DNA of 64,000 bases, from positions 1-64,000 of IMG/VR virus record IMGVR_UViG_3300031521_000040, one strand, 5' to 3'. Numbering within the stretch: the stretch's first letter is position 1; every line of letters begins with the position of its first letter. This document shows positions 3,960 to 54,835 of this stretch, in pieces. The position numbers were made by a program, and so were the translations under genes. Source of the DNA: a virus. The notes under the pieces are model-generated. The model worked only from the letters and a program-made list of their open reading frames with translations. It was not told the origin of the DNA and made no database searches.

Positions 3960-3985
3960 ATTATTATAAATTTTTATTATTTTTA

Positions 3986-3993
3986 ATAAATAC
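3986..3993 (-). promoter_or_regulatory. putative late promoter GTATTTAT
   Basis: 26 nt upstream of ATG 3959. Confidence 0.65.
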
Positions 3994-4092
3994 TAATAAA
4001 AAAATTTTGTAATAAATCAAGATTTCATAATATATCTCGTATAATGGTATATGAGCAAGATTTTTTAAATAATAAATATAAATATATAAAAT

Positions 4093-7880: not shown

Positions 7881-7910
7881 AAATAACATTAAAATTCATT
7901 TATATGTGGA

Positions 7911-8663
7911 ATGATTGAAAACGAAGATAGTGCACCATATTTTGGAGAAAGAGAGGAAAAGGCTGTTTTAGATTATATTAATTCTGATTCCCAAGAAGAA
8001 AAGAATAGAATATATAATGAAATTCTAATAGAACCTTTTCGTAAAATGAAGGAGTCTATTTTAAGGCGCTACCCTATTCATATCGGAAATTATGATATGG
8101 AGGAAGTTGAATCAAATGCATTAACTCATTTGATTGAACATATGATTAAATTTAATCCAGATAAAATTACTAAATCGGGTAATAAAACAAAAGCTTATAG
8201 TTATTGTCAAACAATAATAAGAAATTATTATAAAGATCATAGCAAAAAAAGTTACATGGAGAAAAAGGTTAATCTATGCTTTGATGATTATGCTGAAGAA
8301 ATTAATGAAAGCCTTGATTATAGTTATGAGATAGAGTTAGAAAGCCAACATCATCTTGAAAAGTTGATTAACGGTGTAATCGCAAAAATAGATAATAAAA
8401 TCAGTTCTGATACATCAATGAAGAAAAATGAAATAATTGTTGGCGATGCAATTATTAATGTGCTAAGAAATTGGCATATACTCTTCATGGAAGATAGTCC
8501 TGATGGTAAGTATAACAAAAGAGTTACTAATAAATTTGCAAAAAACAAAATATTGTTCTTCTTAAAGGAACAAACCGAATTATCTACTAAAGAGATTCGA
8601 ATTGCAATTAAGCCGTTTAAGGAAATATATTTTATTGAAAAATTAAATTACTTAGATGATTAA
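7911..8663 (+). CDS. gp55-like late-transcription sigma factor
   Basis: KFNPDK...KAYSYCQTIIRNY resembles region 2 of T4-type gp55. Confidence 0.6.
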   Translation: MIENEDSAPYFGEREEKAVLDYINSDSQEEKNRIYNEILIEPFRKMKESILRRYPIHIGNYDMEEVESNALTHLIEHMIKFNPDKITKSGNKTKAYSYCQTIIRNYYKDHSKKSYMEKKVNLCFDDYAEEINESLDYSYEIELESQHHLEKLINGVIAKIDNKISSDTSMKKNEIIVGDAIINVLRNWHILFMEDSPDGKYNKRVTNKFAKNKILFFLKEQTELSTKEIRIAIKPFKEIYFIEKLNYLDD

Positions 8664-9192
8664 AGTATATCAAACAATTATTGATAAAGGACATGGCAAC
8701 TGCATGCAAGCTGTAGTTGCCAGCCTTTTAGAACTGCCATTAGAAGAAGTACCTAATTTCATTGAAATTAAGGAAGGTAGTTGGTTTCTTACTATGGAAC
8801 ATATGTTCGATGATCGTGGCTATGATCTTTGTACTATTGGTAGAGGTGGAAATACTGATACTGAAATGTTAAAAAAAATAGCTAAATTTGATGGTGGTGT
8901 TAATGGTTTTCTTTATGCTTCAGTACCATCCATGACTTTTGAAGGCTGTGGTCATGCCGTTATTGTAGATACTGATCTTAACATAGTACATGACCCCAAT
9001 CCCAATCAACTAGCTCTACAGCTTACTGCTGATGATATTGATTCTATAATGGTTTACCATGATATGCGAATTGGTAAAACAGGTAAATGTTTTACTCTTG
9101 AACAATGGGATAATTTATCTATTGAAGAAAAGGATACTAATACTTATAAAACAGTATATGATAAAGATGGAAAGGTTATAGGCAGTATATAA
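8656..9192 (+). CDS. hypothetical protein, possible papain-like Cys-His-Asp fold
   Basis: GNCMQAVVASLL...HAVIV...VHDPNP. Confidence 0.5.
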   Translation: MIKVYQTIIDKGHGNCMQAVVASLLELPLEEVPNFIEIKEGSWFLTMEHMFDDRGYDLCTIGRGGNTDTEMLKKIAKFDGGVNGFLYASVPSMTFEGCGHAVIVDTDLNIVHDPNPNQLALQLTADDIDSIMVYHDMRIGKTGKCFTLEQWDNLSIEEKDTNTYKTVYDKDGKVIGSI

Positions 9193-15264: not shown

Positions 15265-16839
15265 TTAAATATTATTTATAAACATATATTTGTTATTTCC
15301 ACAATCATATATTCTAGGTATTTTCCTCTCCAACATTATTTCATGCTCTGTTTTGCTATTATCAAAGCCGTTGGTTACTAAGACATCTTTTCTAAATAAA
15401 AATCTGTGTTTTCTTTCTTTACCCACGACATACCAATAGTTAGGACTTGTAGTGTAAAGATATTCAAATTTTAATTGTTTATAGAGATTTCCATTGCTAT
15501 ACCGTTTATTGGCGAAGGTGATTACTGTTTTAGGTATGTAATGCAACAAAAAATATTTAAATAACTTAGATGCTGCACCTATATTACTATGATTTATTTT
15601 ATTACAAAATCTTAGCATTTCATAGTCATTCTCGTCGTTTTTCGTTTTGTTTCCTAAAACATTTCTGAGTTTACCAAACGTCATTAATGATATTAATTCA
15701 TTATTATTAAACAAGCCGATTTTTATTGATGAATTAACATTACCTTGTATGTGATTATTGTTTAGAAATTCCAGAGAGGTTTTACTATCAATTTCCCTTA
15801 TAATACATTTTCTAGCAAATATTTTGTGACTTGTTAAATTTAGTTTATTTTTTATAATTGATAATATGACATCATATTTTTCCAACAGCTCGTCTTCAAA
15901 GAAGTGTAATAATTGAATATTCTTTTCTTCACACATTTTAGTTTTTTTAATATGATAATCATCATCTATGTAGTATTCGGAGTGCCAATATAGTCCATCG
16001 ATTTCAATGGCTAAACGATAATCAGGAATGTAAATATCAAGCTCCAATCCAATAGTCTTTCTGTCGTTAGGAATATATGTTATATTACTTTCCTTTAAAA
16101 AATTACACAGTTTTCTTTCAAATGTTGTCCTAGGTGAACCAATTGGCTGTATTGTAGTGGATAACTCAACATTATGATTTAATCTGTTGTTGATCTGTTT
16201 TCTATTGCCAATAAAAACATGTCCATCCGGATGCAACACTTTTATGTTTTCATTAATAAATTCAAGTATTTTATACCCGCTTTCTTCAAATTTTTTTGAA
16301 AGAGCCAGTTGTCTTTTTATCTCTAATTTGGCTAATATATTTTTATGTATTTCAGCACCTCTTATTTTATATGTTTTTCTAAGATTACCCAAAGCTTTTA
16401 ATCTAACCTCTTCAATTTGAAACGTGTTATCAACGCCATATTTTTCAAAAACAGCTTTTTGTGTGGCTTTTATTCTTAATATAATATTTTCGGGTCTAGC
16501 CTGCCACTCAACTCTACATTTTTCACTGCAAAACATTCTTTCATGTGTAATCTTCTCAACAAACAATTCACCACAGATCAAGCATTTTCTAGTTTCTCTA
16601 GAATTAATTTTTTTTGCTTCATCCGAGCATAGTCGTGAACAATATCTAGTGTTGAATTTTTTTTTCGATCTAAATATTATTCCACAGCGCTCACATGGTT
16701 TTTCGATATAATATTTTTCATCATTTTTTTCTCTAAAATTTAGTTTACATTCTTTTGAGCAAAACATTGTTTCACGTCCTTTTTTAACATGAAATTCATT
16801 GCTGCAATGTTTACATACTAATTTAATAACTGTTGCCAT
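15265..16839 (-). CDS. Hef-like homing endonuclease: Zn fingers, Vsr/PD-(D/E)XK nuclease and C-terminal GNAT(Mom)-like domain
   Basis: three CxxC..(F/Y)CS..C repeats; LELDIYIP..LAIEIDGLYWHS; ARKC..NHIQG..MTFG..EMLRFC..GAASKL..YDCG. Confidence 0.8.
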   Translation of the reverse strand: MATVIKLVCKHCSNEFHVKKGRETMFCSKECKLNFREKNDEKYYIEKPCERCGIIFRSKKKFNTRYCSRLCSDEAKKINSRETRKCLICGELFVEKITHERMFCSEKCRVEWQARPENIILRIKATQKAVFEKYGVDNTFQIEEVRLKALGNLRKTYKIRGAEIHKNILAKLEIKRQLALSKKFEESGYKILEFINENIKVLHPDGHVFIGNRKQINNRLNHNVELSTTIQPIGSPRTTFERKLCNFLKESNITYIPNDRKTIGLELDIYIPDYRLAIEIDGLYWHSEYYIDDDYHIKKTKMCEEKNIQLLHFFEDELLEKYDVILSIIKNKLNLTSHKIFARKCIIREIDSKTSLEFLNNNHIQGNVNSSIKIGLFNNNELISLMTFGKLRNVLGNKTKNDENDYEMLRFCNKINHSNIGAASKLFKYFLLHYIPKTVITFANKRYSNGNLYKQLKFEYLYTTSPNYWYVVGKERKHRFLFRKDVLVTNGFDNSKTEHEIMLERKIPRIYDCGNNKYMFINNI

Positions 16840-16964: not shown

Positions 16965-19757
16965 TTAGTCAGTAAAAGATGCACCAGATGGACTAATGGT
17001 GAACGTTATTCCTATGAATTCAACAGCACGTGTTGGTTTTAGTTGAATTTCACCATAGAGTTCATTTCTATCATTACTTTCTGTTGTATTATTACTACTA
17101 TCCATTTTGATTCTAAAATCAAGTAAGCCTCTTTCTCTCTTGATTGTATCTAGAATAGGTGTTGCTTTTGATAAGAATTGATCGATAGTTGTCTGATCGT
17201 TTTGCTCGAAAACAAGTCTGATTGCGATATTAGCAATAAGTACTTTAATTTGAAGTAATAATCTACGAACATTAATCCTATTAAGTGCAGTTTCTTTAAC
17301 TTGCAATGTTTTTTGTCCGAAGATTGCAGTTCCAGTATCAGCGAAGTCAGCCATTGGGTTAATTCTGCCAGCATATAAAATATCTCTTGCTTCTTGTGAT
17401 AATTTATATTTAGATTTTCTAGCATTAGTAACGCCTCTATTCAAACCTGCTGGCGCAAACCATGGAAATGATGAATTATCTGTAAATGCCATTGCTCGTA
17501 CTACTTCACCTGTAGGTGGAATATAAACGTTTACATTATTTTGAGTATCCCTCAACTGAATCCATGGAAAATAAGTACATGAATAGCTACTATCAATACC
17601 TGCAGTATCCAATAAATCAACAATATCTTGTGCTGCAATAACATCTGCTTTACCGTTGTCTCCAACTGCAATGCTGACATTTACATCAGGTGTATCGATA
17701 ATATATAACGTATCGGTTCTTTGTGTTTCAATCATTTCGATTGTATCTTGAATGATTATATTGTTATCAGACCAGTTTATGCCCGGGGTTGCAAACAAGT
17801 TAATTGTAACTTCTTCAGGATTTGCAAATACGTTAATAGCTGTTTCCCATGCTTGGAAGTCGTTTGTTGGACTACCGTTTGGTACTACGCCATCATAAAG
17901 TCCGTTTAAACGATATAAATCACCATATGAACGACCATCCCTATTAACGTCCCATCCATCAAAACCACCAGCAGGCGCTAATGTGAATTTTCTTGTGTTA
18001 ATATCATAATATGCCGATGTTGAATCAGTTACATCATTAATCGTTTGGAATGTATCAATACCACCGTCAAAGCTATAACCATTTGAGGTTACACCAGAAG
18101 CATGTATGTCCATATGGAAACCTTGTGTTTCAATGTGACTACCAGTACTAATTTGCCCATTAAAATTAAAATAGTTTTGGTTAATACCTACACCTTTAAC
18201 ACTTGGGCTGCTATATGCTGTTTCAGAAATACCTAAGAATACTTTCTTTATTCTGTCATCAGCATTATAATATGTTTTATAGAAAACTTGTGGAGCAATA
18301 CCTGCAATTACGCCAGCTGTGCTACCAGATGTTGTTGCTGAAACTGCATAGTTATTAAATAAGTATCCTTCAAAACCAGCTGGAAAATCACCAATAGTTA
18401 AATCGCTTGCGACTTCAACCATAACGAATTTACTTAACAAGTCATAATCACCATCAATAGTACCGATTCTCTGACCAATATAGTTATTCTGCCCTTTAAT
18501 TATGCTACATCTTGAAAATGTTTCTAATACACTTACATTATCATCAGTATCGTTGAAATCACGAATGATTACATCAAATTCTAATGATATTGGGTTAATG
18601 TTAGCAATACTAATTTTAATTTCTTGATTAGCTGCATTTCCATCTGAAATACTAATAAACTTGAATAATCTGCTAACAGAATTACCTTTAATCTGACTTA
18701 CTACCCATGGAGTTTCAGGTGTTTTAAATTGTGTTTTATAGTTGCTAAAGAAACTAGTATTACATGCGATAATTTTAGTGTTTACACCAAATGCATATGG
18801 CGAAATACCAGAAATTCCATATATTGCCCATTGACTACCAAAAGTAGCACCATCGCTATCAAGTTTCTTTATCAAATCAGGATAAACTGCTTCAGCCCAA
18901 ATTTTAGTTGTTTTATCTTTTGCATCAAATCCGATTACGTTAGGTATAAAGCTACTTGCATCAGGATTTAATGAAACAACATACATTTCTTTTGTTGAAC
19001 CGCTTATTGCATTTAAATTAAACGTGCCGAATAAGTTGCCAATGCCCGTTGATGTTGTGTTTCCTGAAATAGTTAACGTTGTTGCATCAAATACTGTTGT
19101 TGAATTGGCATTTACATTATCTACAACATTACCTCTACTTCTAACAACACCTAACACCATATTTTTATAGTCAGTGTATTCAGTGCCATTAAATGTAGTT
19201 GCTGTTATTGAAACAGTACCGCTTCCAGTACTTGCGCTGTAGGTAATTGCTTTAAACGTTTTTGATATTCCACTAAATGCAGTATCACTATATTTAGTAA
19301 ATCCGCCAAATACAACGCCAGTATCACCTGATGCATAAATTGAAACGCCTAAGTAAGTATTATTGGTATATGATGCTGTGGTAACACCTGTAGCACCTTT
19401 ACTTACAGTTGATGGATCAATACCAGCATTTAATGTAAGTGCCCAAGCTTTTCCTGCATTATATCCGCTTAAACCCAATACTCTAGTTACCCATAATTGA
19501 TTAGTTTCTTCCAGATATGAATTAGCTACATATGGTAATTGATATTGAAGATTACCGTTGGTAAATCTTTGGGTTGTTTGTGCTCCAAATCTGTTAGCAA
19601 ATTCAGTTTTGTCCTGTACGTAAACCTTCTCAAAGGCAGGTCCTTTAAGGGTTTCGCCAACAAGTCCTAATGTTGTAATACCTACGTTTCTTGTTACAAA
19701 GGTTAGGTCTTGTTCTTTAAATTTATACCCCGGTGAGGTAAATACAAATTCTGCCAT
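16965..19757 (-). CDS. gp18: tail sheath protein (T4 gp18-like)
   Basis: SPG N-terminus; WFAPAGLNRG, RINP, FGQKTLQ, RINVRRLL, FEQND, KPTRAVEFI. Confidence 0.95.
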   Translation of the reverse strand: MAEFVFTSPGYKFKEQDLTFVTRNVGITTLGLVGETLKGPAFEKVYVQDKTEFANRFGAQTTQRFTNGNLQYQLPYVANSYLEETNQLWVTRVLGLSGYNAGKAWALTLNAGIDPSTVSKGATGVTTASYTNNTYLGVSIYASGDTGVVFGGFTKYSDTAFSGISKTFKAITYSASTGSGTVSITATTFNGTEYTDYKNMVLGVVRSRGNVVDNVNANSTTVFDATTLTISGNTTSTGIGNLFGTFNLNAISGSTKEMYVVSLNPDASSFIPNVIGFDAKDKTTKIWAEAVYPDLIKKLDSDGATFGSQWAIYGISGISPYAFGVNTKIIACNTSFFSNYKTQFKTPETPWVVSQIKGNSVSRLFKFISISDGNAANQEIKISIANINPISLEFDVIIRDFNDTDDNVSVLETFSRCSIIKGQNNYIGQRIGTIDGDYDLLSKFVMVEVASDLTIGDFPAGFEGYLFNNYAVSATTSGSTAGVIAGIAPQVFYKTYYNADDRIKKVFLGISETAYSSPSVKGVGINQNYFNFNGQISTGSHIETQGFHMDIHASGVTSNGYSFDGGIDTFQTINDVTDSTSAYYDINTRKFTLAPAGGFDGWDVNRDGRSYGDLYRLNGLYDGVVPNGSPTNDFQAWETAINVFANPEEVTINLFATPGINWSDNNIIIQDTIEMIETQRTDTLYIIDTPDVNVSIAVGDNGKADVIAAQDIVDLLDTAGIDSSYSCTYFPWIQLRDTQNNVNVYIPPTGEVVRAMAFTDNSSFPWFAPAGLNRGVTNARKSKYKLSQEARDILYAGRINPMADFADTGTAIFGQKTLQVKETALNRINVRRLLLQIKVLIANIAIRLVFEQNDQTTIDQFLSKATPILDTIKRERGLLDFRIKMDSSNNTTESNDRNELYGEIQLKPTRAVEFIGITFTISPSGASFTD

Positions 19758-30550: not shown

Positions 30551-31594
30551 ATGATTATGATTGAATTAAATTGCTGTGGAATATATAAAATAACTAATAA
30601 TATCAATGGTAAATATTATATTGGTTCATCACATGAAGTAAAACATAGAATACAAAAACATTTTGAATTATTGAAACGTAAATGTCATCATAGTATACAT
30701 TTTCAAAACGCATATAATAAATATGGAAAGGACGTATTTAGTGTTGAAATATTGGCTGAGTGTAAGAGAGATGAGCTGTTTATTTATGAACAGCAATATT
30801 TTGATGAAATAATAGATTGGCAGTGTACATATAATATGTCTAAAATTGCTGCTGGTAGTAATTACGATTTAAATAATCATCCTAATGAAAAGGAAATCAG
30901 TAAAAAAATAAGCCTCGGCAATACAGATAAACATACCAAACCATTCTATATTAATGGCATTAGATATGAAAAATTAATAAATGCTGCTGTTGTTTTTAAT
31001 GTAGATATTAAAACAATATCAAACAGGATAAAAGATTGGAAAACTAAAAATTATTATTATGAAAATAAACCGAAAATTGGTGAATACGATAAAATCATAA
31101 ATAATATCTATACTAATAAATTATTTAAAGAAAAACATAAACATGTTTATAGATGTGAATGTGGGGTGGAAATAAGTAAAGATTCTAAGTTCTGTGTTGG
31201 CTGTCGTAAAACAAGAAAAGATAATAGAAAATATATTAATCCTGTTACAATAAATAATGTAAAATATGATTCTGCTAAAGAAGCATCAAAAATACTAAAT
31301 ATTGAATATGCCACTCTAATATATAGAATTAATACAAATACCATCACATATAAGGATTATTTTTACACTAATAATCCTAAAAACATTTATGAGTTAATTA
31401 CAATTAACGAAATAAAAATCAAGGCATCAACAACAAAAATTGATAATAATAGTTCGAACAACAAAAAGTCTTTCATTATTGACGGAATTCAATATTTAAC
31501 ACTTGGTGATGCATCAATAAAACTTAATTTAAGAAAACAACTTATATGGGATAGATTAAGAAGCAAAAAGTTTAAAAATTATATATATGTTTAA
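30551..31594 (+). CDS. GIY-YIG homing endonuclease with NUMOD-type C-terminal repeats
   Basis: GIYKITNNINGKYYIGSS...R...H; three I(N/D)(G/N)..Y....A...L repeats. Confidence 0.9.
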   Translation: MIMIELNCCGIYKITNNINGKYYIGSSHEVKHRIQKHFELLKRKCHHSIHFQNAYNKYGKDVFSVEILAECKRDELFIYEQQYFDEIIDWQCTYNMSKIAAGSNYDLNNHPNEKEISKKISLGNTDKHTKPFYINGIRYEKLINAAVVFNVDIKTISNRIKDWKTKNYYYENKPKIGEYDKIINNIYTNKLFKEKHKHVYRCECGVEISKDSKFCVGCRKTRKDNRKYINPVTINNVKYDSAKEASKILNIEYATLIYRINTNTITYKDYFYTNNPKNIYELITINEIKIKASTTKIDNNSSNNKKSFIIDGIQYLTLGDASIKLNLRKQLIWDRLRSKKFKNYIYV

Positions 31595-32689: not shown

Positions 32690-32834
32690 ATTAACTATAT
32701 ACGTATTAATAGCATAAAATGTTACAAGGTATTGTTTTAAATATAAATACTGATTAATAAAAGATAATTTGGAAAATTTGGTGGTTGTTATACTTTTTAA
32801 CTACGATGCGAGTATTTATGATAAATATTATACC

Positions 32835-33992
32835 ATGGATAGAAATGAACTTAAGAAATATTTAGAATCAGATAACAAGTCTGGATATAAAACACGTGAA
32901 AAACACATAAAATATAAATTTCCTGAAACATATGAGAATATTGTTAATATTTGTCATGAGCATTGGTTTACTGATTTATATAATTTTGTTAATAATGTTA
33001 GTGGTAAGACATGTGCTGAATGTGGTAAAGCTTTAGAGGTTAAAATTTTTAATCTTGGCTATCCTCAGTTTTGTTCTGTTATTTGTAAGAACCAAAATAC
33101 TGGTTTTAAAGAAAAGGTGAAAAAATCTGTTTTTTTAAAATACGGTGTCGATAATCCAAGTAAGTCTGATATTGTTAAGAAAAAAATAAAAGATAAGTTA
33201 TTTACTGATGGAAAATGGTATGTTGAAACAGATGAGTATAAGAAAAAATCGAAAGAGACTTGTACTAGTAAATATGGCACTGATTCGTATAGTAAACTCG
33301 CTGAATATCATGAAAAGGTAAAACAAACCAGTGTTGATCGATATGGAGTTGATTCATATAATAAAACAGACGAATATAAGGAATATTGTAAAACAAAAAA
33401 TTTGGAAAAATACGGCACTGAATGGTTTCAATCTACTGAAGAGTTTAAAGAAAAATCAAAAAAAACTAATCTAAAAAAACGTGGTGTTATAAGTCATACT
33501 AAAACGGATGAATATAAATTGAAAATGAAAGCATATTATTTAAATAAATATGGCATTGAACATCATATGCAAACGGAAGAGGGAAAGAAAAAGGTCTACG
33601 ATGCTATGATTGAAAAATATGGAGAATTATGGTTAAAACATATTCCATCATATAACGCTAACTCCATTATCTATTTAGATATGCTCTCAGAGAAACTAAA
33701 ATTACCGATACAACACGCATTGAATGGCGGTGAGAAGAAATTTATTAGATATTGGGTTGATGGTTATATTCAAAAATATAATATTTGTATTGAATGGGAT
33801 GAAAAGCATCATAACTCAGAACGCCAAAAAATACGTGATGCTAATAGAGAAGAGTTTCTCATTAGCAATTTTAATTGTAAAATTTTTCGAATTAATGAAA
33901 GAGAATTTTTTAAAAATATAGTGACCAGCATTGATGATATTGCTGGTCACATAATAAATTATATTGCTATGATCGGGAACATGGGTGGCTGA
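32835..33992 (+). CDS. homing-endonuclease-like protein with KYG repeats and a Vsr/DUF559-like nuclease domain
   Basis: CxxC..FCS..C, about 7 (K/R)(Y/R)G repeats, YWVDGY....ICIEWDEKHH; ATG 32835 follows GTATTTAT at 32812-32819. Confidence 0.75.
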   Translation: MDRNELKKYLESDNKSGYKTREKHIKYKFPETYENIVNICHEHWFTDLYNFVNNVSGKTCAECGKALEVKIFNLGYPQFCSVICKNQNTGFKEKVKKSVFLKYGVDNPSKSDIVKKKIKDKLFTDGKWYVETDEYKKKSKETCTSKYGTDSYSKLAEYHEKVKQTSVDRYGVDSYNKTDEYKEYCKTKNLEKYGTEWFQSTEEFKEKSKKTNLKKRGVISHTKTDEYKLKMKAYYLNKYGIEHHMQTEEGKKKVYDAMIEKYGELWLKHIPSYNANSIIYLDMLSEKLKLPIQHALNGGEKKFIRYWVDGYIQKYNICIEWDEKHHNSERQKIRDANREEFLISNFNCKIFRINEREFFKNIVTSIDDIAGHIINYIAMIGNMGG

Positions 33993-35617: not shown

Positions 35618-38164
35618 ATGGATCACAAGCCTACTCCTGAACAAGAAAGAATATTCCTTTTTATAAAGAAAAGAACTGAAAACATTGTTATTAAAGCCTT
35701 TGCAGGCACTGGTAAAACTTCTACCATAGTTGAAGCAGTTAAGCTGCTGCCCAAAGACAAGCAAATCATGTTCTTAGCATTTAATAAGCACATCCAAGTC
35801 GAATTGCAGGAAAAGTTACCCAGCCACGTGCGCACTTACACTACTTATGGTTTAGGTACATCAGCCATTAAAAGGAAATATGGTGATAGCATTCAATTTG
35901 ATGAATTTAAAATAGATAAAATCATCCAGAAGAAAGCTAAGTCATGGGATTTAGACGATGAGTTTAAAACAGAAGAAGAAATATTTGTTTATTTAAACAA
36001 CATTAAGAAATTAGTTAACCTTTGCAGACTAACACTTACTTTAAAGCCCGAATACGTGCCTTACGTGGCAGAACGTTATGAAGTTAATATAAGCAAGCCA
36101 AATGATATTAAAAGGGTTCTAAAGGTCTTAAATGATGCAACGCTGGATAGGAAGTCTTTTGATTACACCGATATGATATATTTACCAGCAGTTGATAACA
36201 GTATTTGGATGTTTCCACAAGATTATGTGTTTATTGATGAATGTTTGCCAGCTAAAACATATATTTCAACAATAGAGGGTAAAAGACAATTAGGTGCGCT
36301 TTATTATTTGAGCAAGAAAAATATTACATTACCTGATATTATTACTTATAATGAAAAAACCAGCCTTTTTGAAAACAAAAAAATTAATAAAATTTGGTGT
36401 ACAGGGAAAAAAGATGTTTATTATGTTGTTTTAAATGGAAAAAGAAAATTAAAATCGACTGTTAATCATAGATTTTTAACATTATCTGGCTGGAAAAGAT
36501 TAGATGAACTAAAAATTGGTGATTCTGTAATTTCAAATTATAATAATCAACCATATCATGAAATATTCAATGAAACCCAAAAGAATATAGTAATCGGATC
36601 AAAGCTTGGTGATGGACATCTTGGAAAAATTTCTGATGACATATATAGACTAAGTGTAATACATGGCGAAAAGCAGAAAGAATATTGTGAATGGAAAGCA
36701 TCCTTTTTTGATTCTAAAATAAAAAATTTAAAAAATAACGGCTATGCGAAAAAGCAAGCATATTCCTTTACGACCAAAGGATTTTATTTTAATATATGTG
36801 AAAGTGAAATCATCAATAACATGTCACTACAATCATTAGCGATATCTTGGATGGATGATGGTAATTTAGCAAAAAATGAATTGAGTTCCACTCTTTACTC
36901 AACAGCTAAGAGTGTGAGATTGTCTCAATTACTTTCCGATAAAATTAATGGTCTTTGGAATATTTCATCAACAGTTAGAAAATCTAAAAGCTCAACAACA
37001 AAAAACCCATATTATCGGTTATTGTTTAATAAAGAAAATACTCAAAAAATTTCAAGTCTTTTGGCGCAGTATATTCACCCAAGCATGGGGTATAAGTTAT
37101 GTACTAATGATAGAAATAAATTTAATGAAACACTATGGCTTAATGAAAAAATAAATTTAGGATGTATGGTTGTTACATCTGAGCATAAATTTTATAAATA
37201 TGAAAATACTTATGATATGTCCGTTGAAGATAATCACAATTTCATTGTAACATCCGAAAGTTACATAAATGGTGCTGCTGGAAATTTTGGAATAATAACA
37301 CATAACTGTCAAGACCTTAACAGATGTCAGATTAAAATCATTGAGAAAATATTGAAAAGAGATAAACTAAGCGGAAAAATTACTGGCAGACTGATTTCTG
37401 TTGGTGATTATTTTCAAGGAATTTATGGTTTCAATGCAGCGGATGATAAATCTTTCGAATGGTTTGAAAAATTCCCCAATACTAAGGTATTGCCTTTGTC
37501 AGTATCATTCAGATGTGCTAAAAATGTTATACTAAAAGCTCAAGAGATCGTCCCTGATATTAAAGCATTAGATGATGCACCCGATGGACTTGTAAGGGAT
37601 GGAAATGTGCTTACAGAGGCTGAAAGCGGTGATTTCGTTATATGTAGAACGACAATGCCATTGGTTAAGCTATTTTTCGAGTTTCTAACACAACATAAAA
37701 AAGCAGTTATTAAGGGTAGTGATATTGGCATTCAATTAATTGAATTAATAGGTAAAATCGATACGATTGATAAGCTTAAAACATTTTGGGAAGGTGAGCT
37801 ACATTCGTTTAAAAAAGAGTTGAAATCAACAGGCATATTGAATCCATCAGAGCATAGTGGATATTCAGCATTAGAAGATAAAGTAATGACATTGTTGTTT
37901 TTAGCTAAACTATCCACTAACATTACCGAATTAAAATTAAACATCAGAACTATTTTTACTGATGAAATTGTGGGAATATGCTTAAGTACAGTGCATAAGA
38001 TCAAAGGACTTGAAGCTAATCGTGTTTTTATAGTAAGACCCGATTTACTGCCATTACCCAATGCTCATGGTTGGCAATCTATACAAGAAAAGAACCTAGC
38101 CTACGTAGCGTATACGAGAGCTAAGCTAGAACTTATATTTGATAGAGAATGGAGCGATGAATAA
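35618..38164 (+). CDS. UvrD/Rep-like superfamily 1 helicase containing an intein
   Basis: AFAGTGKT, LAFNK, FIDE|CQD, VGD..Q.IYGF, SFRC, STVHKIKGLE, YVAYTRAK. Confidence 0.92.
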   Translation: MDHKPTPEQERIFLFIKKRTENIVIKAFAGTGKTSTIVEAVKLLPKDKQIMFLAFNKHIQVELQEKLPSHVRTYTTYGLGTSAIKRKYGDSIQFDEFKIDKIIQKKAKSWDLDDEFKTEEEIFVYLNNIKKLVNLCRLTLTLKPEYVPYVAERYEVNISKPNDIKRVLKVLNDATLDRKSFDYTDMIYLPAVDNSIWMFPQDYVFIDECLPAKTYISTIEGKRQLGALYYLSKKNITLPDIITYNEKTSLFENKKINKIWCTGKKDVYYVVLNGKRKLKSTVNHRFLTLSGWKRLDELKIGDSVISNYNNQPYHEIFNETQKNIVIGSKLGDGHLGKISDDIYRLSVIHGEKQKEYCEWKASFFDSKIKNLKNNGYAKKQAYSFTTKGFYFNICESEIINNMSLQSLAISWMDDGNLAKNELSSTLYSTAKSVRLSQLLSDKINGLWNISSTVRKSKSSTTKNPYYRLLFNKENTQKISSLLAQYIHPSMGYKLCTNDRNKFNETLWLNEKINLGCMVVTSEHKFYKYENTYDMSVEDNHNFIVTSESYINGAAGNFGIITHNCQDLNRCQIKIIEKILKRDKLSGKITGRLISVGDYFQGIYGFNAADDKSFEWFEKFPNTKVLPLSVSFRCAKNVILKAQEIVPDIKALDDAPDGLVRDGNVLTEAESGDFVICRTTMPLVKLFFEFLTQHKKAVIKGSDIGIQLIELIGKIDTIDKLKTFWEGELHSFKKELKSTGILNPSEHSGYSALEDKVMTLLFLAKLSTNITELKLNIRTIFTDEIVGICLSTVHKIKGLEANRVFIVRPDLLPLPNAHGWQSIQEKNLAYVAYTRAKLELIFDREWSDE
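36242..37306 (+). mobile_element. intein (355 aa) with LAGLIDADG endonuclease
   Basis: starts CLPAKT, block B TVNHRF, GSKLGDG and WMDDG motifs, ends YDMSVEDNHNF...THN followed by C+1. Confidence 0.95.
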
Positions 38165-38765: not shown

Positions 38766-39044
38766 ATGGAATGGAAAGTATTAATTGAAGGAAAACCTAA
38801 TTTAAGAATCATGGTTAAATTTCTTCCACTAACAGAACAAATCGCCTTTATAGGTCAGTTTAAAAGAACTAATTTGGAATGGGTGAATTTTTGCATTGAG
38901 GAACATACTATGTATATTGATTTAGATCAAATCAATGAAATGTTGGTTAAAACATATGATACTATGACGACAAGAATTAATATGTATAATGAAGTTGCCG
39001 AAGGTTTCACTCTTATTAAGGTGATTGAAGTTAAAGAAGATTAA
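38766..39044 (+). CDS. hypothetical protein
   Basis: 92-aa ORF. Confidence 0.65.
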   Translation: MEWKVLIEGKPNLRIMVKFLPLTEQIAFIGQFKRTNLEWVNFCIEEHTMYIDLDQINEMLVKTYDTMTTRINMYNEVAEGFTLIKVIEVKED

Positions 39045-40774
39045 TCGGTAATTAATTTAAATTCAAAAAAGTCATAATACCATGGCTTGCCTGTTTTCAG
39101 CTCAATTTGTTTTCTTTTAAATTTTGATTCTAATATAAAATCTGGATATGTTTCGGTAATATGTATGGTCAAACAGCCTGATTTATTTATATAATCAGTA
39201 AATACTCTACCTGTTTTTTTACATGTTAAAACATAATGATTTACTGAATTGTAATTGTCATCGACAGGTTTAGCTCTTTTGGTGAAAATTCCACTGAGCG
39301 TCGAAAAATTAATATCATATTTTCTTGAAATTTCCCTGATTGGCATATTATCTTTTTCATAATCACTATATATGCACTTCAATTCATCCACAGAGAATTC
39401 CTCTAATGTTCTATGTTTTTGAGAACTAAATGATTTTTGTGTGTTATTAATATAGTCCTCTTCGTAGCACCAATAAATGTTTTGATTATTTTTTGTATGT
39501 CCCAAGCATTTCCTCAGAATTTGTTCATGTGATAGTCCATCGATATTATTTCTTCCAGCATCAGCTAAAGATGAATATCTTTCAATAATGGTATCAATAT
39601 TTCTATCAATTTTAATAACAGGCTTGGATACTTGAATAACTCTTTTCTGAATCCATTCTTTACTTTGCTTGACATTTTTTCTAATTCTAGATAATTTTTC
39701 TTTGGTTTCATCATGACTAAAAGACCTTATTCCACCAAATTCAATATTATAACCCAAATTTCTATTAGTTGAGTCGTATTCATAAATATATTTAATTTCT
39801 TTATAGTTTAATTCATCAGTTGTTTGTGCAGTATCTATAATATTAAACTTAAATTTATCGAATCCATATTTGTCGAAAGCTTTTAATACATATAAATTAC
39901 AACACTTAGCTCTGTTTTTGTATTCATTATATCTATCGTTAAAGCCTCTTGTTGTTTGACCTACATATTTTTTATTATTTACAGTATTCTCAATTAAATA
40001 AATTATACCAGCAATTTCGTTGTTTTTTTTAGGGTATTCTAATTTTATGTGCTTAATCGATTCAAGAAATTTTTTATTTTCTACTTTATTACCTATAAAA
40101 TAGAAGTATCTTCTTTTTCTATATTGTGAAAGAAAAATTGCATTAGGATATTTTTCTAATATTACATCTTTTTTAATTGTTCCAAATTCTTTCCTGATAG
40201 AGCGTGAATGTTTCAATTTTCCATCGATAAAAACCGAGAATCTCTTGGTTTCTCTTCCGTTTTTTCCGTAGTTTCCTGTCATGAGACCAACATAGTGCCA
40301 ATTTAGTGATTGATATATAATACCTATTTCACCAGCTGATGGGTCAACACTTGCTGTTATTATTTTATATTCTGTATTTTTTTTAAGCCAATCAGCTGTC
40401 TTAGAAATAAAATAGGAAGCTGTATTTTTTGGTGTCCACCAAAGGCATGTACCTCGACTTAATAATATTATTTTATTTGTATACCCATACTTATCCCAAG
40501 TAGTAGATTTATTTGCTGAGTATTCTTCTGAATATATAACAACGCCACCTAAATGGTATTCATTATCTATATTAAAATATATTCCAAAAAAATATCTATT
40601 AAATAACGGCATTGTTTTAAGCCATTCATATTTTAAAATAATATTTCTCGCTGTGCTAAAATCTATTAGTTCTATTTTTGTATTAGATAATGCAGCTTTG
40701 CCATAATCAAAATCAATTGTTGCGGATTCGATTTCTTCTTGTTTTTTACGTACTTTATATTGATATGCTTCCAT
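39041..40774 (-). CDS. Mom-like GNAT domain fused to a GIY-YIG endonuclease
   Basis: LSRG....PKNTASYFIS...ITASVDP..GE.G.IYQS.NW.Y.G (Mom-like), then IIYLIENTVNNKKYVGQT..R (GIY-YIG), NUMOD/HTH tail; start taken as MEAYQY. Confidence 0.8.
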   Translation of the reverse strand: MEAYQYKVRKKQEEIESATIDFDYGKAALSNTKIELIDFSTARNIILKYEWLKTMPLFNRYFFGIYFNIDNEYHLGGVVIYSEEYSANKSTTWDKYGYTNKIILLSRGTCLWWTPKNTASYFISKTADWLKKNTEYKIITASVDPSAGEIGIIYQSLNWHYVGLMTGNYGKNGRETKRFSVFIDGKLKHSRSIRKEFGTIKKDVILEKYPNAIFLSQYRKRRYFYFIGNKVENKKFLESIKHIKLEYPKKNNEIAGIIYLIENTVNNKKYVGQTTRGFNDRYNEYKNRAKCCNLYVLKAFDKYGFDKFKFNIIDTAQTTDELNYKEIKYIYEYDSTNRNLGYNIEFGGIRSFSHDETKEKLSRIRKNVKQSKEWIQKRVIQVSKPVIKIDRNIDTIIERYSSLADAGRNNIDGLSHEQILRKCLGHTKNNQNIYWCYEEDYINNTQKSFSSQKHRTLEEFSVDELKCIYSDYEKDNMPIREISRKYDINFSTLSGIFTKRAKPVDDNYNSVNHYVLTCKKTGRVFTDYINKSGCLTIHITETYPDFILESKFKRKQIELKTGKPWYYDFFEFKLITD

Positions 40775-40810
40775 TATAAATAATTTGATTTTACTCCAGA
40801 AAACAAAGGT

Positions 40811-40842
40811 AAAAAAAGACTTGCATATGTGCAAGTCTTTTT
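40811..40842 (-). terminator. intrinsic terminator after the major capsid gene
   Basis: aaaaagacttgca-tatg-tgcaagtcttttt; abuts a TACCTTTG -7 element (40804-40811) for the next gene. Confidence 0.85.
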
Positions 40843-40865: not shown

Positions 40866-42551
40866 TTATTGAAGATCACCGATTCCGAAAGTCTGAAGAC
40901 CATCACAATAGATTCTACCATAATAACGGTTAAGAACCATTTTCTTTGCATAACGTGTCATAATTCCACGAATTGGTGTAAAATCGAATGGGTTATACAT
41001 GACCGGCGTAAGCTGCATTGGTACGTAAGGAGCGTAGATGTAACCTGTTTCCAAGATACTAGTACCCTTATGTCCGATAAGAATTGTGTTTGCTGGTGAA
41101 TATGGGTCACGATACACGATGTAACGACCACTTAAGCTACCGATTTTTTCGATACCCATGTTGTATTTGTCTTCTTCTGGAGAAGCATTGCTAACGTGGA
41201 AATATTCCAAGTCATCAAATACTGCTGATACTTCAGGAGATACAACTACCCAACTAGCGCCACCACGAAGGGTTGCTTTATGAATCTGAGCTGAAATCTG
41301 GTTGATCTTTGTGATAAGAGTCTGATTCCAGTCTTTTTGTGTTCCATAATAAGTATTAGCTTGTCTACGAAGACCATTATAGTCCCAACGTGCAGTCCAA
41401 GCAGCACCTCTACGTAAGTCACGTAAAATCTCACGATCAATCTCAGCAGCCATTTGCTCTGACAATAAAGCTGTTAATTCAGCTTCAGCATCAATATTAT
41501 GAAACGCTGAAACGTCCTGAGCAAGCTCTGGAGTCCACATAGCTCTCATTTTACGTGTTTCAACAGAAACAGTAACTTGATCTAACTGGAATGTTACTTC
41601 TGCCATACGTGAATCTTCTTCAAGATCACTATAGCTTCTGTATTCATAGAAGAAACTTGTTGTTCCTGATGTAACAGCGCTTAATGGCTGATAACCGTTT
41701 GTTCCTGCATATTGAAGGTCAACTACTAATACGATATCACCTTGTTTGTTAACAATAGCTTGTCCGTATTTTTGTACCTTAACATTGAAAGGAAGTGAAT
41801 GTCCTTTAAGAACGTTTTGTTCTGTAAAACCTGCTGGTGCTACAAAATCTTTGTTAGATGTAATTTTCAAACTTGAAAGGAATGATTCAGTGTCCATCTG
41901 AACACCTGCAGGACCTACCAATTTACCTGAGTCGCTTACCAAGAAGCCATGAATAACAACTTGGATGAATTTTTCGCCAACTGTCCATGATGCACCTGTT
42001 GTTGTACCAGTGTGAACTGACATATCGCCTTTTGAACGATCAAACAATGAAGCACCTTCTTCGTTATATTCTGTTGCATAAAATGCATCATACAATGAAC
42101 GAGTTTCGAATTGTGTTCTTTCTCCAGCAGGTTTGTTTGCTGCATTGCCATAAGCACCGTTAGGTGATGTATGTTGATTACCAGCTGTTGTTGTGTGAGT
42201 GTCATCTTGTACTCTAACACTTGCTTTTGGATTTATGTAGTACAATTTACCAATAGGTAAATTAAGTGCCTGTACAGACACGATATCATTTGCTAAAAGC
42301 TTAGCAAATACCCTACGAATAACTGGAAACGCTACTGTTTCGAATTGTCCTGATGAAGCTGAATCTGATGATTCATTGATCATATAAGATAACTGATTTT
42401 CAAAAAGCTGTGCGCAATTTTCTTTCACGTTACCATCTAATCCTTCTAGCAAGCCGATTTTTTCCCAACGGTTTGTAGTTATTTCTCTTTGTTCACGAAG
42501 TTGTTTTAATCCAATATTGCCAACTTCGGCTGATTCCATTAAAAATCCCAT
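40866..42551 (-). CDS. gp23: major capsid protein (T4 gp23-like)
   Basis: FPVIRRVF..L.ANDIVSVQ, TRKMRA.WTPELAQD...FH.IDAEAEL, EIDREI, YAPYVP, F.P.RGIMTRY. Confidence 0.97.
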   Translation of the reverse strand: MGFLMESAEVGNIGLKQLREQREITTNRWEKIGLLEGLDGNVKENCAQLFENQLSYMINESSDSASSGQFETVAFPVIRRVFAKLLANDIVSVQALNLPIGKLYYINPKASVRVQDDTHTTTAGNQHTSPNGAYGNAANKPAGERTQFETRSLYDAFYATEYNEEGASLFDRSKGDMSVHTGTTTGASWTVGEKFIQVVIHGFLVSDSGKLVGPAGVQMDTESFLSSLKITSNKDFVAPAGFTEQNVLKGHSLPFNVKVQKYGQAIVNKQGDIVLVVDLQYAGTNGYQPLSAVTSGTTSFFYEYRSYSDLEEDSRMAEVTFQLDQVTVSVETRKMRAMWTPELAQDVSAFHNIDAEAELTALLSEQMAAEIDREILRDLRRGAAWTARWDYNGLRRQANTYYGTQKDWNQTLITKINQISAQIHKATLRGGASWVVVSPEVSAVFDDLEYFHVSNASPEEDKYNMGIEKIGSLSGRYIVYRDPYSPANTILIGHKGTSILETGYIYAPYVPMQLTPVMYNPFDFTPIRGIMTRYAKKMVLNRYYGRIYCDGLQTFGIGDLQ

Positions 42552-53281: not shown

Positions 53282-53395
53282 TTCTATAATTTTTTATAGT
53301 TTTTTATAAATACAAATATTTTCTGGAAAATACTTTCATATAAATACTATTTGATCTACATTTGTAAATCTAATTTAATTATCAGGGATATAATA

Positions 53396-54835
53396 ATGAA
53401 GGTCAATAGGTTTATTGAAAGAGGAAATTTAAAACATAATGGATTTTATGACTATTCATTAGTTATTGAAGCACAAATCAGAGAAAAGTTTAAAATTATT
53501 TGCCCAATACATGGCGTGTTTGAGCAAAGAGGTGATGCACATTTATCGGGACAGGGATGTGGTAAATGCAAAAAATCCATATTAAAATCTCAAAATGAAT
53601 TCGTTATAGATGCTAAAATAAAACATGAAAATTATTATGATTATACTCTTGTTAATTATGTAAATTCAAAGTTATGTGTTGACATTATTTGTCCTGTACA
53701 TGGGGTTTTTAAACAAACACCTGATAATCATCTAGCTGGTCATGGATGTGCTAAATGTGCATTTGTATTAAATTCATCTATAATGAAAAATGTTTCAGCA
53801 GATAAATTTGAAAATGAAGCAAACGAAACACATAACGATAAATATGATTATCAAAATTCAATATATACTAGAGCAAAAGATAAGATAAATATTAGCTGTA
53901 AAATACACGGGGAATTTAAACAAACACCGAACGATCATTTATCTGGAAAAGGTTGTCCTAAATGTGGAGTGAACCTATCGATAGGCGAAAATGAAGTACG
54001 TGACTTTATCGAAAATGAATTAGGTTTTAAAACAGATAAAATTAGAATAGAAAGTAAAGAAATTGATATTTTTATTCCAGAAAAAAATGTTGGCATTGAA
54101 TACGATGGTCTATATTGGCATTCGGATAATTTTAGGGATAAAAAATATCATTTAAATAAGACCTTATTATGTGAAGAACATAATATTCAACTACTTCATA
54201 TTTTTGAGGATGAATGGATTAATAAAAAAGAAATTGTTAAATCAATAATCAGGTCTAAATTAGGCGTTGTTAATAATAAAATATTTGCTAGAAAGTGCAT
54301 TGTAAAAGAATTGAAAGTAACTGATGTTACAAAATTTCTGTTTGTGAATCATTTACAAGGCAATGTAGGGGGCTGTGCTAGATATGGATTGTACTATAAT
54401 GACGAGCTAGTGTCATTAATGACATTCGGTAAAAAAAGAGCATCAATGGGTGTTAAGATTAGAATTGATGATGAATATGAAATGATGAGATTTTGTAACA
54501 AACTCAACGCAACTGTTGTTGGTGGAGCAAGTAAATTATTAAAACATTTTATAATAGAACATAATCCTGCCTCAATTCTAACATTTGCTGATAGAAGATA
54601 TTCCAATGGTAATTTATATCTAGAATTGGGTTTCAAGCATGTCGGGTATAGCGACCCTAACTATTTTTATTTTTCTAAAAACAGTCTAAAACGTGAATAT
54701 CGTTTTAAATACAGAAAAGATATTCTTATTAAGCAGGGATTTGATGCATTAAAAACCGAGCATCAAATCATGCAAGAAAGAGGGTATTATAAAATATTTG
54801 ATTGTGGTCATATAAAATTCATCATGCGTTTTTAA
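53396..54835 (+). CDS. Hef-like homing endonuclease: Zn-ribbon repeats, Vsr-like nuclease and C-terminal GNAT(Mom)-like domain
   Basis: three YDY...C..HG.F.Q...HL.G.GC..C repeats; EIDIFIP...GIEYDGLYWHS; ARKC..NHLQG..MTFG..RFC..GGASKL..FADRRYS..DCG; TACATTTG at 53357-53364. Confidence 0.82.
   Translation: MKVNRFIERGNLKHNGFYDYSLVIEAQIREKFKIICPIHGVFEQRGDAHLSGQGCGKCKKSILKSQNEFVIDAKIKHENYYDYTLVNYVNSKLCVDIICPVHGVFKQTPDNHLAGHGCAKCAFVLNSSIMKNVSADKFENEANETHNDKYDYQNSIYTRAKDKINISCKIHGEFKQTPNDHLSGKGCPKCGVNLSIGENEVRDFIENELGFKTDKIRIESKEIDIFIPEKNVGIEYDGLYWHSDNFRDKKYHLNKTLLCEEHNIQLLHIFEDEWINKKEIVKSIIRSKLGVVNNKIFARKCIVKELKVTDVTKFLFVNHLQGNVGGCARYGLYYNDELVSLMTFGKKRASMGVKIRIDDEYEMMRFCNKLNATVVGGASKLLKHFIIEHNPASILTFADRRYSNGNLYLELGFKHVGYSDPNYFYFSKNSLKREYRFKYRKDILIKQGFDALKTEHQIMQERGYYKIFDCGHIKFIMRF

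Follow-up and report, generated by a model that had tools for sequence, protein, structure and literature searches.

The window analysed here (positions 1–64,000 of the IMG/VR virus record IMGVR_UViG_3300031521_000040) comes from an uncultured giant T4-like phage (jumbo phage), the record covering ~27% of a roughly 300-kb T4-like genome. As the initial annotation had pointed out, a minus-strand open reading frame of 577 aa lies directly behind the gene of the Gp23-type major capsid protein. Domain profiles and structure prediction confirm that a single chain comprises a Mom-type GNAT domain, a GIY-YIG nuclease, and a DNA-binding tail. The features of the locus and two further nuclease–GNAT genes of the window are as follows.

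38766–39044 (+): convergent 92-aa gene, its stop overlapping the stop of the Mom–GIY-YIG open reading frame
39041–40774 (−): whole open reading frame, 577 aa, with the order Mom, GIY-YIG, linker, DNA-binding tail, covered without differences by contigs of independent runs
40028–40690 (−): Mom-type GNAT domain, residues 29–249, including an HTH-like insertion at ~165–215
39737–40009 (−): GIY-YIG catalytic domain of the I-TevI/Seg type, residues 256–346
39635–39736 (−): flexible linker, residues ~347–380, with the lowest pLDDT of the model (residues 347–351 below 50)
39044–39634 (−): C-terminal DNA-binding region, residues ~381–577, with small beta/alpha modules, a three-helix HTH, and a terminal module
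39056–39373 (−): terminal HTH and C-terminal module, residues 468–573, common to the N-terminus of Hef-type nucleases of the same slot
40804–40811 (−): −7 promoter box TACCTTTG, abutting the terminator T-run and fitting the Bacteroidota consensus TAnnTTTG
40811–40840 (−): intrinsic terminator of the capsid gene, stem AAAGACTTGCA / TGCAAGTCTTT followed by a T-run, read from the sequence
40866–42551 (−): gene of the Gp23-type major capsid protein (Pfam PF07068, E 4.3e-73), directly upstream of the Mom–GIY-YIG open reading frame on the same strand
15265–16839 (−): second nuclease–GNAT fusion, Hef-type, with a Vsr/DUF559-like nuclease (residues 226–332) and a Mom-like GNAT
53351–54835 (+): third nuclease–GNAT fusion, a paralogue of 15265–16839 with zinc-finger modules, an MTES_1575/Vsr-like nuclease, and the same GNAT tail

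The homologues of the 577-aa protein share their N-terminus (consensus MEAYQYK) and the upstream TTG (40834) falls inside the capsid terminator stem; thus the true start codon is the ATG at 40774. The joint between Mom and GIY-YIG is ~6 residues long. Since the fusion is common to at least 190 metagenomic protein clusters and contigs from the independent peat runs X2, X3, and X6 span the joint (~40005–40030) with zero differences, it is not an assembly artefact, a possibility that had been raised at the outset.

The capsid protein of the window is 74–91% identical to the capsids of 80 IMG/VR loci, and in every relative a hairpin equivalent to the capsid terminator is found 3′ of the capsid stop. 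The −7 element had correctly been placed next to this terminator, and a TTG in the left arm of the stem is 21 nt upstream of it. A TAnnTTTG box within 120 nt after the capsid stop occurs at 9 of 12 MomA–GIY-YIG loci and 12 of 14 GNAT-B–GIY-YIG loci, together 21 of 26, as compared to none of 12 empty sites; its presence at the GIY-YIG fusion loci is more than chance.

The nuclease half matches the Pfam family GIY-YIG (PF01541) at residues 256–337 with an E value of 4.4e-6 and 27.3 bits (cut-off 22.6), the protein matches phrog_314 ("homing endonuclease"), and phmmer relates this half to the I-TevI entries 1mk0 and 1ln0. In the VIA comparison with 1ln0 a Z of 12.7 and an rmsd of 1.8 Å over 87 residues are obtained. 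The I-TevI residues Y6, Y17, R27, E75, and N90 align with Y259, Y270, R281, E326, and N343, of which R281 is present in 108 and the other four in all of 109 homologues. The GIY-YIG domain recognised initially is thus complete in its catalytic residues, and no match to Vsr, DUF559, or MTES_1575 was found in the 577-aa protein, whose nuclease is GIY-YIG.

The tail had been described as NUMOD/HTH. This label is weakly supported: Pfam reports SpoIIID/HTH_psq at weak E values of about 0.06–0.1, phrog_1303 ("DNA binding protein") matches the C-terminal region with E 1e-3, and the tail folded alone gives low-Z matches to the regions with which I-HmuI (5.8) and I-TevI (4.6) bind DNA and to generic three-helix HTH structures (~5), the isolated model being weaker (pLDDT 69.5) than the tail within the full model (pLDDT 86–95). 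NUMOD1 and NUMOD3 proper are found in shorter homologues and not in this protein. The module of residues 468–573 has a counterpart in two Hef-type genes of relatives (L094:6884-8500, BLASTP 43% identity over 110 aa, E 7e-19; L052, 49% over 55 aa). One DNA-binding module is hence carried by a GIY-YIG nuclease here and by a Vsr nuclease there, in the same slot.

This slot was surveyed in 76 capsid-anchored relatives with downstream sequence. It contains a Mom–GIY-YIG gene in 13, a GNAT-B–GIY-YIG gene in 17, a Hef-type gene in 7, GIY-YIG only in 5, and other small open reading frames in 21 of them, and is empty in the remaining 13; further occupants in relatives include EndoVII/HNH–Mom cassettes. 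The terminator T-run on one side and the stop of the convergent gene on the other exactly delimit the insert; in empty-site relatives this stop follows directly after the capsid terminator. One locus (L066) carries two different copies in tandem. Moreover, element and capsid do not share the same history: the closest capsids (90–91%) go with a distant 485-aa form (60–62% in Mom), and the closest copies of the element (76–79% in Mom) are found behind capsids of 82–84%. The optional filling of the slot and the reuse of the DNA-binding tail in Hef-type genes imply a free-standing element of the homing-endonuclease type. We therefore consider it very likely that the Mom–GIY-YIG gene is a homing-type mobile nuclease gene, in line with the homing nuclease that had been one of the two initial suggestions.

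Traces of the presumed homing event were sought as well. Capsid identity to the window, binned over 120 loci, gave no co-conversion signal beyond general conservation, and the pattern of one locus (L010) was rejected as a conversion tract, the capsid C-terminus being 90–100% conserved everywhere, whatever follows. In the last 120 nt no nucleotide separates filled from empty sites, and no cleavage site was identified. A search for operators or targets with the conserved leader TTCTGGAGTAAAATCAAAT gave one other match in the window, with three mismatches (18081–18099), which we do not take as meaningful. Two further candidates were discarded. A 258-aa protein of 63% identity (P0122) was considered as a stand-alone Mom at the slot; since fused forms are found at all loci recovered with it, it may be a fragment. 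What looked like insertions in the capsid genes at three loci (L063, L069, and L072) is a separate small open reading frame with the N-terminal motif of the capsid.

That one DNA-binding module is used at this locus by two kinds of nuclease suggests a target nearby. This argues against the view that the protein is a one-chain offensive restriction–modification weapon, in which Mom would mark the phage DNA genome-wide and the nuclease would degrade unmodified host or superinfecting phage DNA instead of serving its own spread. Such a role has been proposed in print for the Mom–REase fusions of T4-like jumbo phages (Iyer et al. 2021, PMC7824862). The source phage, itself T4-like with its roughly 300-kb genome, would fit, as would the conservation of both active sites and a host-type promoter, which suggests expression by the unmodified host RNA polymerase. 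In addition there are three nuclease–GNAT genes in the window; the protein of 15265–16839 matches Pfam Mom at residues 345–484 (E 1.1e-7) and its GenBank relatives are annotated as "Hef-like homing endonuclease". However, the architecture, with a presumably sequence-specific DNA-binding part tethered to the nuclease, resembles that of homing enzymes of the I-TevI type, tails have been exchanged between lineages, the gene is missing from many close relatives, and a post-replicative modifier would mark host and competitor DNA too. On balance we regard the weapon as an unlikely function of this protein.

The Mom half matches Pfam Mom (PF25680) at residues 33–249 with an E value of 9.6e-22 and 78.1 bits (cut-off 27.1), covering positions 3–202 of the 202 of the profile, and PHROG 1384 ("Mom-like") with E 1.9e-24. 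Its best fold match is Mu Mom (8bv8; Foldseek E 1.3e-9), with a VIA Z of 16.7 and an rmsd of 2.9 Å over 172 residues, whereas generic GNATs reach Z 13 or less. The identity to Mu Mom is about 18–19%, and a sequence search of the PDB returned I-TevI only and not Mom, so that profile and fold searches were needed to find this relation. Mu Mom is a GNAT that hypermodifies adenine at N6 in dependence on Gly-tRNA(Gly); its residues R111, S124, D149, and Y159 are needed for activity, the R151A mutant is dead in vivo, and the protein forms a tight dimer that has a cleft for DNA and requires an HTH-like insertion (PMC13219725). The equivalents of the four residues are R107 and Y154, present in 109 of 109 fusion homologues (mean identity ~50%), and S120 and D144, present in 108 of 109. 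The Mom-like motifs that had first drawn attention to the protein contain them: PKNTAS holds the equivalent of S124, and VDPSAGEIGIIYQSLNW those of D149 and Y159. The HTH-like insertion, placed between the last strands of the fold, is kept at ~residues 165–215. A degenerate GNAT pocket, which had been considered at the outset, is not obvious.

Other positions of the pocket differ. Mu R151 is not kept but aligns with S146, a position that varies between A, M, and S in the family, and this alignment is firm as the spacing from D149 to Y159 is identical. Mu R154 aligns with an invariant E149, and H58/Y59 fall in a gap beside the invariant Y49-E50-W51, where the alignment is less certain. With R151 lost, H58/Y59 replaced, and R154 changed to E149, the donor, the target base, or even the activity may differ; a pocket altered in this way, with E50 and E149 and lacking R151, could reflect a donor or product other than that of Mu.

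The loss of R151 and the replacement of H58/Y59 could also be taken to mean that the Mom-like domain is not an enzyme at all but aids double-strand breakage or a wider target recognition by binding DNA, flipping bases, or dimerising, roles that would suit the tightly dimeric Mu Mom with its cleft for DNA and its HTH-like insertion. A divergent GNAT, type "B" of the Hef tail, moreover replaces Mom before the same GIY-YIG nuclease in 17 loci. According to the alignment it appears to be without the catalytic-Ser loop and the HTH-like insertion, a hint that Mu-type chemistry might be dispensable for what the two types do in common. Nevertheless, we consider such a purely structural role improbable. 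R151 is also missing in stand-alone Mom-like proteins, namely those of Polaribacter phage P12002L and phage f2b1, and close relatives of this Mom subtype stand alone in cultured phages, for example between nrdA and nrdB in phage f2b1. The four residues are nearly invariant, and Mom is the most conserved part of the protein (74%/60% identity versus 69%/56% for GIY-YIG and 48%/22% for the tail). In two loci (L025 and L043) the nuclease joined to Mom has decayed, by truncation or loss of catalytic residues, or is deprived of its DNA-binding part, yet Mom itself is intact and retains the four residues. This persistence points to a benefit of Mom that is independent of its own nuclease and argues against a role limited to immunity from that nuclease.

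In a library of 1.8 billion proteins long Mom proteins are fused also to GIY-YIG, LAGLIDADG, Endonuclease_7, and TnsA-like domains, and the Mom subtype of the 577-aa protein is joined to an EndoVII/HNH-type nuclease in a distant clade. The combination with several homing-type nucleases, the high conservation, and the retention after nuclease decay suggest that Mom is selected for its own activity. We think that the Mom domain is probably catalytically active on DNA.

A substrate other than DNA seems very improbable. The GNAT could act on aminoacyl-tRNA or another non-DNA substrate like the toxins TacT and AtaT, for example slowing host translation, with the nuclease as an unrelated passenger; Mom binds Gly-tRNA(Gly), related GNATs acetylate charged tRNA (PMC13219725), and the pocket is remodelled. 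The fold, however, is closer to Mu Mom than to generic GNATs, the recurrent partners of Mom are DNA nucleases, DNA methylases, and DNA-binding domains, and the DNA-facing HTH-like insertion is kept. tRNA genes are absent from the 64-kb window, and 17 are found in the remaining 19 kb of the record, none for Gly; as the record is only ~27% of the genome, this says nothing on the presence of a tRNA-Gly gene in the phage.

Taken together, we suggest, with a probability of roughly 0.55, that the locus carries a mobile gene of the homing-endonuclease type with an apparently working Mom-type DNA-modifying domain, in a T4-like jumbo phage that infects Bacteroidota. Cleavage, its target site, homing, the modification chemistry, and what the modification protects against are what we infer in the following model. 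The gene would be transcribed from its own host-type promoter just after the capsid terminator. The C-terminal DNA-binding modules would hold the protein to a particular sequence close to the slot between the capsid and helicase genes, and the I-TevI-like GIY-YIG domain on its flexible linker would cut cassette-less genomes in mixed infections, whereupon recombinational repair would copy the cassette into the cut genome. The Mom domain would acylate adenine, or another base, in double-stranded DNA with a donor that is probably an aminoacyl-tRNA, as for Mu Mom. The modification may shield the DNA of the carrier from the partner nuclease, from host restriction enzymes, or from both.

Among these functions, protection in cis against its own nuclease can be put forward only tentatively. 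A post-replicative, trans-acting modifier cannot alone tell self from a co-infecting genome. The tail might deliver Mom to the target, where an adduct derived from aminoacyl-tRNA would make the carrier immune to the attached nuclease (a "homing restriction–modification" cassette); this more specific proposal is rather speculative. The idea that the modification mainly counters host restriction, the gene bringing along a mobile anti-restriction cargo, appears about as doubtful as the latter.

In phages, a free-standing homing endonuclease often also cuts the genome that encodes it. How the carriers survive their own enzyme is an old question, and a nuclease carrying its own DNA modifier would be one answer. 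If the cassette works as proposed, it would be the first homing endonuclease with a built-in chemical immunity and the first case of sequence-targeted Mom-type DNA hypermodification; should the tail indeed target the modification, such proteins would be natural sequence-directed DNA-hypermodifying enzymes. The chemistry of Mom was solved only in 2026, when it was found that the glycine of a charged tRNA is put on adenine (PMC13219725), so that the tools for testing such fusions now exist.

When compared with known systems, the Mom half shares with Mu Mom (PF25680; 8bv8) the Pfam family, the closest fold, the equivalents of R111, S124, D149, and Y159, and the HTH-like insertion. On the other hand, it shares its chain with a nuclease and a DNA-binding tail, whereas Mu Mom stands alone under Com/Dam control, and it differs in the pocket, where R151 is not kept, H58/Y59 are replaced by the invariant Y-E-W, and R154 by an invariant E. 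With I-TevI and the T4 Seg enzymes the protein has in common a catalytically complete GIY-YIG domain, its free-standing and optional nature, and probably also the flexible linker and modular DNA-binding tail; the 250-aa Mom domain in front of the nuclease sets it apart. Like segD the element adjoins the major capsid gene. In T4, segD lies between genes 23 and 24 in antisense orientation and without a recognised promoter (PMC2988022), whereas the element described here runs in the direction of the capsid gene and possesses a promoter of its own.

Hef of phage U5 and the "Hef-like" enzymes combine a nuclease of the Vsr/EDxHD type with a C-terminal GNAT tail (PMC2988022, PMC3239194). They resemble our protein in that a homing-type nuclease is fused to a Mom-related GNAT, and Hef-type genes use the same slot and share the DNA-binding module. 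However, the Hef nuclease is of the PD-(D/E)xK/Vsr and not of the GIY-YIG type, the domain order is reversed, and the GNAT tail is more divergent, with a weak Pfam Mom match and the Ser loop and HTH insertion apparently missing. Hef reportedly cuts its own genome too.

The Mom–REase fusions of T4-like ("group 2") jumbo phages are predicted to be phage restriction–modification modules (Iyer et al. 2021, PMC7824862). Phage group and logic are the same, that is, Mom and an endoDNase in one polypeptide, but the partner here is a GIY-YIG homing nuclease with a tail predicted to be site-specific, and the gene behaves as a mobile cassette in the comparative data. GIY-YIG is absent from the text of that study, in which only REase-fold nucleases are named; as modify-and-cut has already been proposed there (PMC7824862), only the GIY-YIG form is new. 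The comparative picture extends this short published remark by several homing-type partners and by a Mom domain that is the best conserved part and is retained.

Type IIG/IIL enzymes such as MmeI also have a nuclease, a modifier, and a target-recognition part on one chain, and their cutting and protecting activities compete at the same sites. They are cellular defence genes that join a SAM-dependent methyltransferase to a PD-(D/E)xK nuclease, whereas the present protein, which has no homology to them, belongs to a mobile element of a phage and pairs a GNAT acyltransferase with a GIY-YIG nuclease.

In the window, the ORF directly behind the capsid gene encodes two catalytic domains in a single chain:
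39041–40774, minus strand: Mom–GIY-YIG ORF, 577 aa

Pfam places the Mom family (PF25680) at residues 33–249 (E 9.6e-22, 78 bits vs. a cut-off of 27) and the GIY-YIG catalytic domain at residues 256–337 (E 4.4e-6), and PHROGs returns both "Mom-like DNA modification protein" and "homing endonuclease". In an AlphaFold2 model from 109 homologues (mean pLDDT 87) the best structural match of the N-terminal domain is phage Mu Mom, crystal structure 8bv8 (Foldseek E 1.3e-9; VIA-align Z 16.7, rmsd 2.9 Å over 172 residues, compared with Z ≤13 for ordinary GNATs), and the nuclease domain superposes on the catalytic domain of I-TevI (Z 12.7, rmsd 1.8 Å over 87 residues). Thus, Pfam, PHROGs and the fold matches agree with the initial annotation that a Mom-like GNAT and a GIY-YIG nuclease share one polypeptide. 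The two catalytic domains are joined by only about six residues, whereas the linker behind the nuclease (347–380) is of low confidence and the tail beyond it is well folded. Modeled alone, this tail only weakly resembles the regions with which I-HmuI (Z 5.8) and I-TevI (Z 4.6) bind DNA, as well as three-helix HTH domains, so that the NUMOD/HTH nature proposed for it is plausible, although matches this low do not secure it.

The fusion is not an assembly artefact. A word-indexed search at E ≤1e-3 yielded 194 protein clusters, and among the matches listed nearly all have both Pfam domains. The joint is kept without stops across the homologues, and at about 40005–40030 it is bridged with zero differences by contigs of three peat-metagenome runs, all from studies other than that of the likely source. 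No GenBank phage record covering ≥80% of the protein was found, so that to date all known carriers of the fusion are uncultured phages. The record itself is an 83-kb IMG/VR fragment with a G+C content of about 30%, and its rated completeness of 27% implies a T4-like jumbo phage of roughly 300 kb as source. Just past the window (L134, record positions 64001–83181) 17 tRNA genes lie in arrays (2507–13625 of L134), several of them duplicated (Pro, Asp, Glu, Leu); no tRNA-Gly gene is among these 17, in a record that is 27% complete.

Mu Mom moves glycine from Gly-tRNA(Gly) onto adenine N6; R111, S124, D149 and R151 are essential, H58, Y59, Y159, W48 and W181 are important and an HTH-like insertion (175–209) is required (Silva et al. 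2026, PMC13219725). In the alignment R107, S120, D144 and Y154 of the window protein occupy the positions of R111, S124, D149 and Y159, and the insertion is present. R107 and Y154 are invariant among the 109 fusion homologues, as are E50 and E149, and S120 and D144 are conserved in 108/109; the pocket is not obviously degenerate. In contrast, the position of the essential R151 is taken by S146 and varies among the homologues, Y49-E50-W51 stands in place of the H58/Y59 pair, and R154 of Mu corresponds to E149. The Mom segment is the most conserved of the whole protein, and the GIY-YIG residues equivalent to I-TevI Y6/Y17/R27/E75/N90 are conserved in 108–109/109. The Y-E-W and G-E-I-G motifs also occur in a stand-alone protein of the Herelleviridae phage f2b1:
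L001 (f2b1, MN940411.1), 3854–4717: stand-alone Mom-like gene of the Y-E-W/G-E-I-G subtype, between nrdA and nrdB

This nrdA–nrdB slot holds the homing endonuclease gene mobE in T4 and hef in U5. From these residues we read the Mom pocket as being under strong selection and yet no copy of that of Mu; the domain is likely to be active, but a chemistry identical to that of Mu Mom is not assured.

Comparison of 40 loci found with the element protein and 80 found with the capsid gene identifies a hot spot between the latter and the convergent small gene or helicase gene. Contents of this slot in the 76 capsid-anchored relatives with downstream sequence:
13/76: Mom–GIY-YIG
17/76: a different GNAT type (that of the Hef-type nuclease tail) before the same GIY-YIG
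7/76: Hef-type gene (DNA-binding module, zinc fingers, Vsr nuclease, GNAT)
5/76: GIY-YIG alone
13/76: empty
21/76: unrelated small ORFs

At empty sites the terminator is directly followed by the stop of the convergent gene, and exactly between these two the 1.77-kb cassette sits in the window. Two element lineages of about 575 and 485 aa have Mom–GIY-YIG heads that are 55–60% identical and unrelated tails; one locus (L066) carries both in tandem, and their distribution is at odds with capsid similarity. Over its last 110 residues the element shares 43% identity (E 7e-19) with the N-terminal part of the Hef-type proteins of the same slot. One DNA-binding module thus serves two unrelated nucleases at one locus, as would be expected of site-specific homing enzymes directed there.

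The gene next upstream is of the Gp23 type (Pfam), confirming the position straight behind the capsid gene. In the gap, a terminator hairpin is followed by TACCTTTG touching its T-run, and this Bacteroidota-type −7 box is the promoter element initially described as abutting the terminator. Since the box is found in 21/26 Mom/GNAT–GIY-YIG loci and in 0/12 empty sites, it is a property of the cassette. Between box and ATG, a leader of ~20 nt is conserved within each lineage and specific to it (compared, e.g., for window 40775–40803, L066, L070, L077, L068 and L062): GGAGTAAAATCAAAT for the long form, TGCATTAACACATAT for the short form and the forms with the divergent GNAT, while GTATTTAT is also present in some leaders. 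These could be operators or translation signals; I-TevI represses its own expression through an operator.

The 64-kb window holds at least six nuclease cassettes, including:
15265–16839, minus strand: Hef-type gene with zinc-finger/DUF723 modules, Vsr/MTES_1575-like nuclease and Mom-related GNAT tail
53351–54835, plus strand: its paralogue, with the same modules, nuclease and GNAT tail
30551–31594, plus strand: stand-alone GIY-YIG ORF, 347 aa, PF01541 E 9e-12, likely homing-type
32769–33992, plus strand: DUF7487 + MTES_1575 REase-like protein, 407 aa, likely homing-type
35618–38164, plus strand: UvrD/Dda-like helicase gene split by an intein with LAGLIDADG endonuclease (residues about 209–558)

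Compared with Mom, the GNAT tails of both Hef-type genes apparently have neither the loop with the catalytic Ser nor the HTH-like insertion. The helicase halves are contiguous in most relatives, and a related intein (53–55% identical) is found only in L094 and L101. Near the helicase, some relatives have a small ORF (118 aa in L069) with ~50 residues in common with the capsid N-terminus, a segment which may be a propeptide or head-targeting segment:
L069:9323–9679, minus strand: capsid-N-terminus-like ORF, 51% identical to capsid residues 14–64
L063, about 8366–8470, and L072, about 5931–6083: similar ORFs

What the Mom domain contributes can be judged from its partners. A distant clade, with a capsid of about 53% identity, has the same Mom subtype behind the capsid gene with another nuclease and in reversed order, and elsewhere Mom is found beside decayed nucleases:
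L027–L040, about 7320–8745 in each: HTH – EndoVII/HNH-like – Mom gene, about 470 aa
L025:7989–9017: Mom with all four residues (as in L026) and a truncated GIY-YIG without catalytic Arg or tail
L043:7689–8696: intact Mom behind an HNH remnant without its His residues

In 30 of the Mom relatives that are longer or extended at the N-terminus, taken from a library of 1.8 billion proteins, partners include GIY-YIG, LAGLIDADG, Endonuclease_7, TnsA-like nucleases and DNA methylases. These varied partners and the survival beside decayed nucleases favor Mom being an enzyme of value in itself that would gain from the physical tie to a nuclease. The 17 loci in which a divergent GNAT substitutes for Mom before the same nuclease leave room for a non-catalytic role, as this GNAT apparently lacks Ser loop and insertion in the alignment; Pfam barely scores Mom there and does score GNAT. 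Given Mom's partners and persistence, we suggest that the element is a mobile nuclease gene of the homing type and that its Mom domain would modify DNA to the benefit of the carrier, acting either as immunity to its own nuclease or as mobile anti-restriction cargo. With the chemistry of Mom solved, the element is worth bench testing.

In T4 the free-standing GIY-YIG gene segD adjoins gene 23 (PMC2988022), and here as well a GIY-YIG gene lies beside the major capsid gene. By annotation and Pfam, the two Vsr–GNAT genes of the window belong to the published Hef-like family. For the Mom–REase fusions of T4-like jumbo phages, the prediction of Iyer et al. is that phage DNA is shielded by momylation, leaving host DNA or that of superinfecting phages as the target of the nuclease (PMC7824862). 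The initial observation is confirmed and its interpretation partly supported: the mobile homing-type nuclease with a conserved Mom stands, and the modify-and-cut part, a possible role, had already been published for sister fusions. The text of Iyer et al. does not mention GIY-YIG, and full-text literature searches found no paper on a Mom–GIY-YIG or Mom–homing endonuclease fusion. The element is therefore of a fusion type already in print, from which it differs by its GIY-YIG partner and its nature as a mobile cassette, and these two features are what is new.
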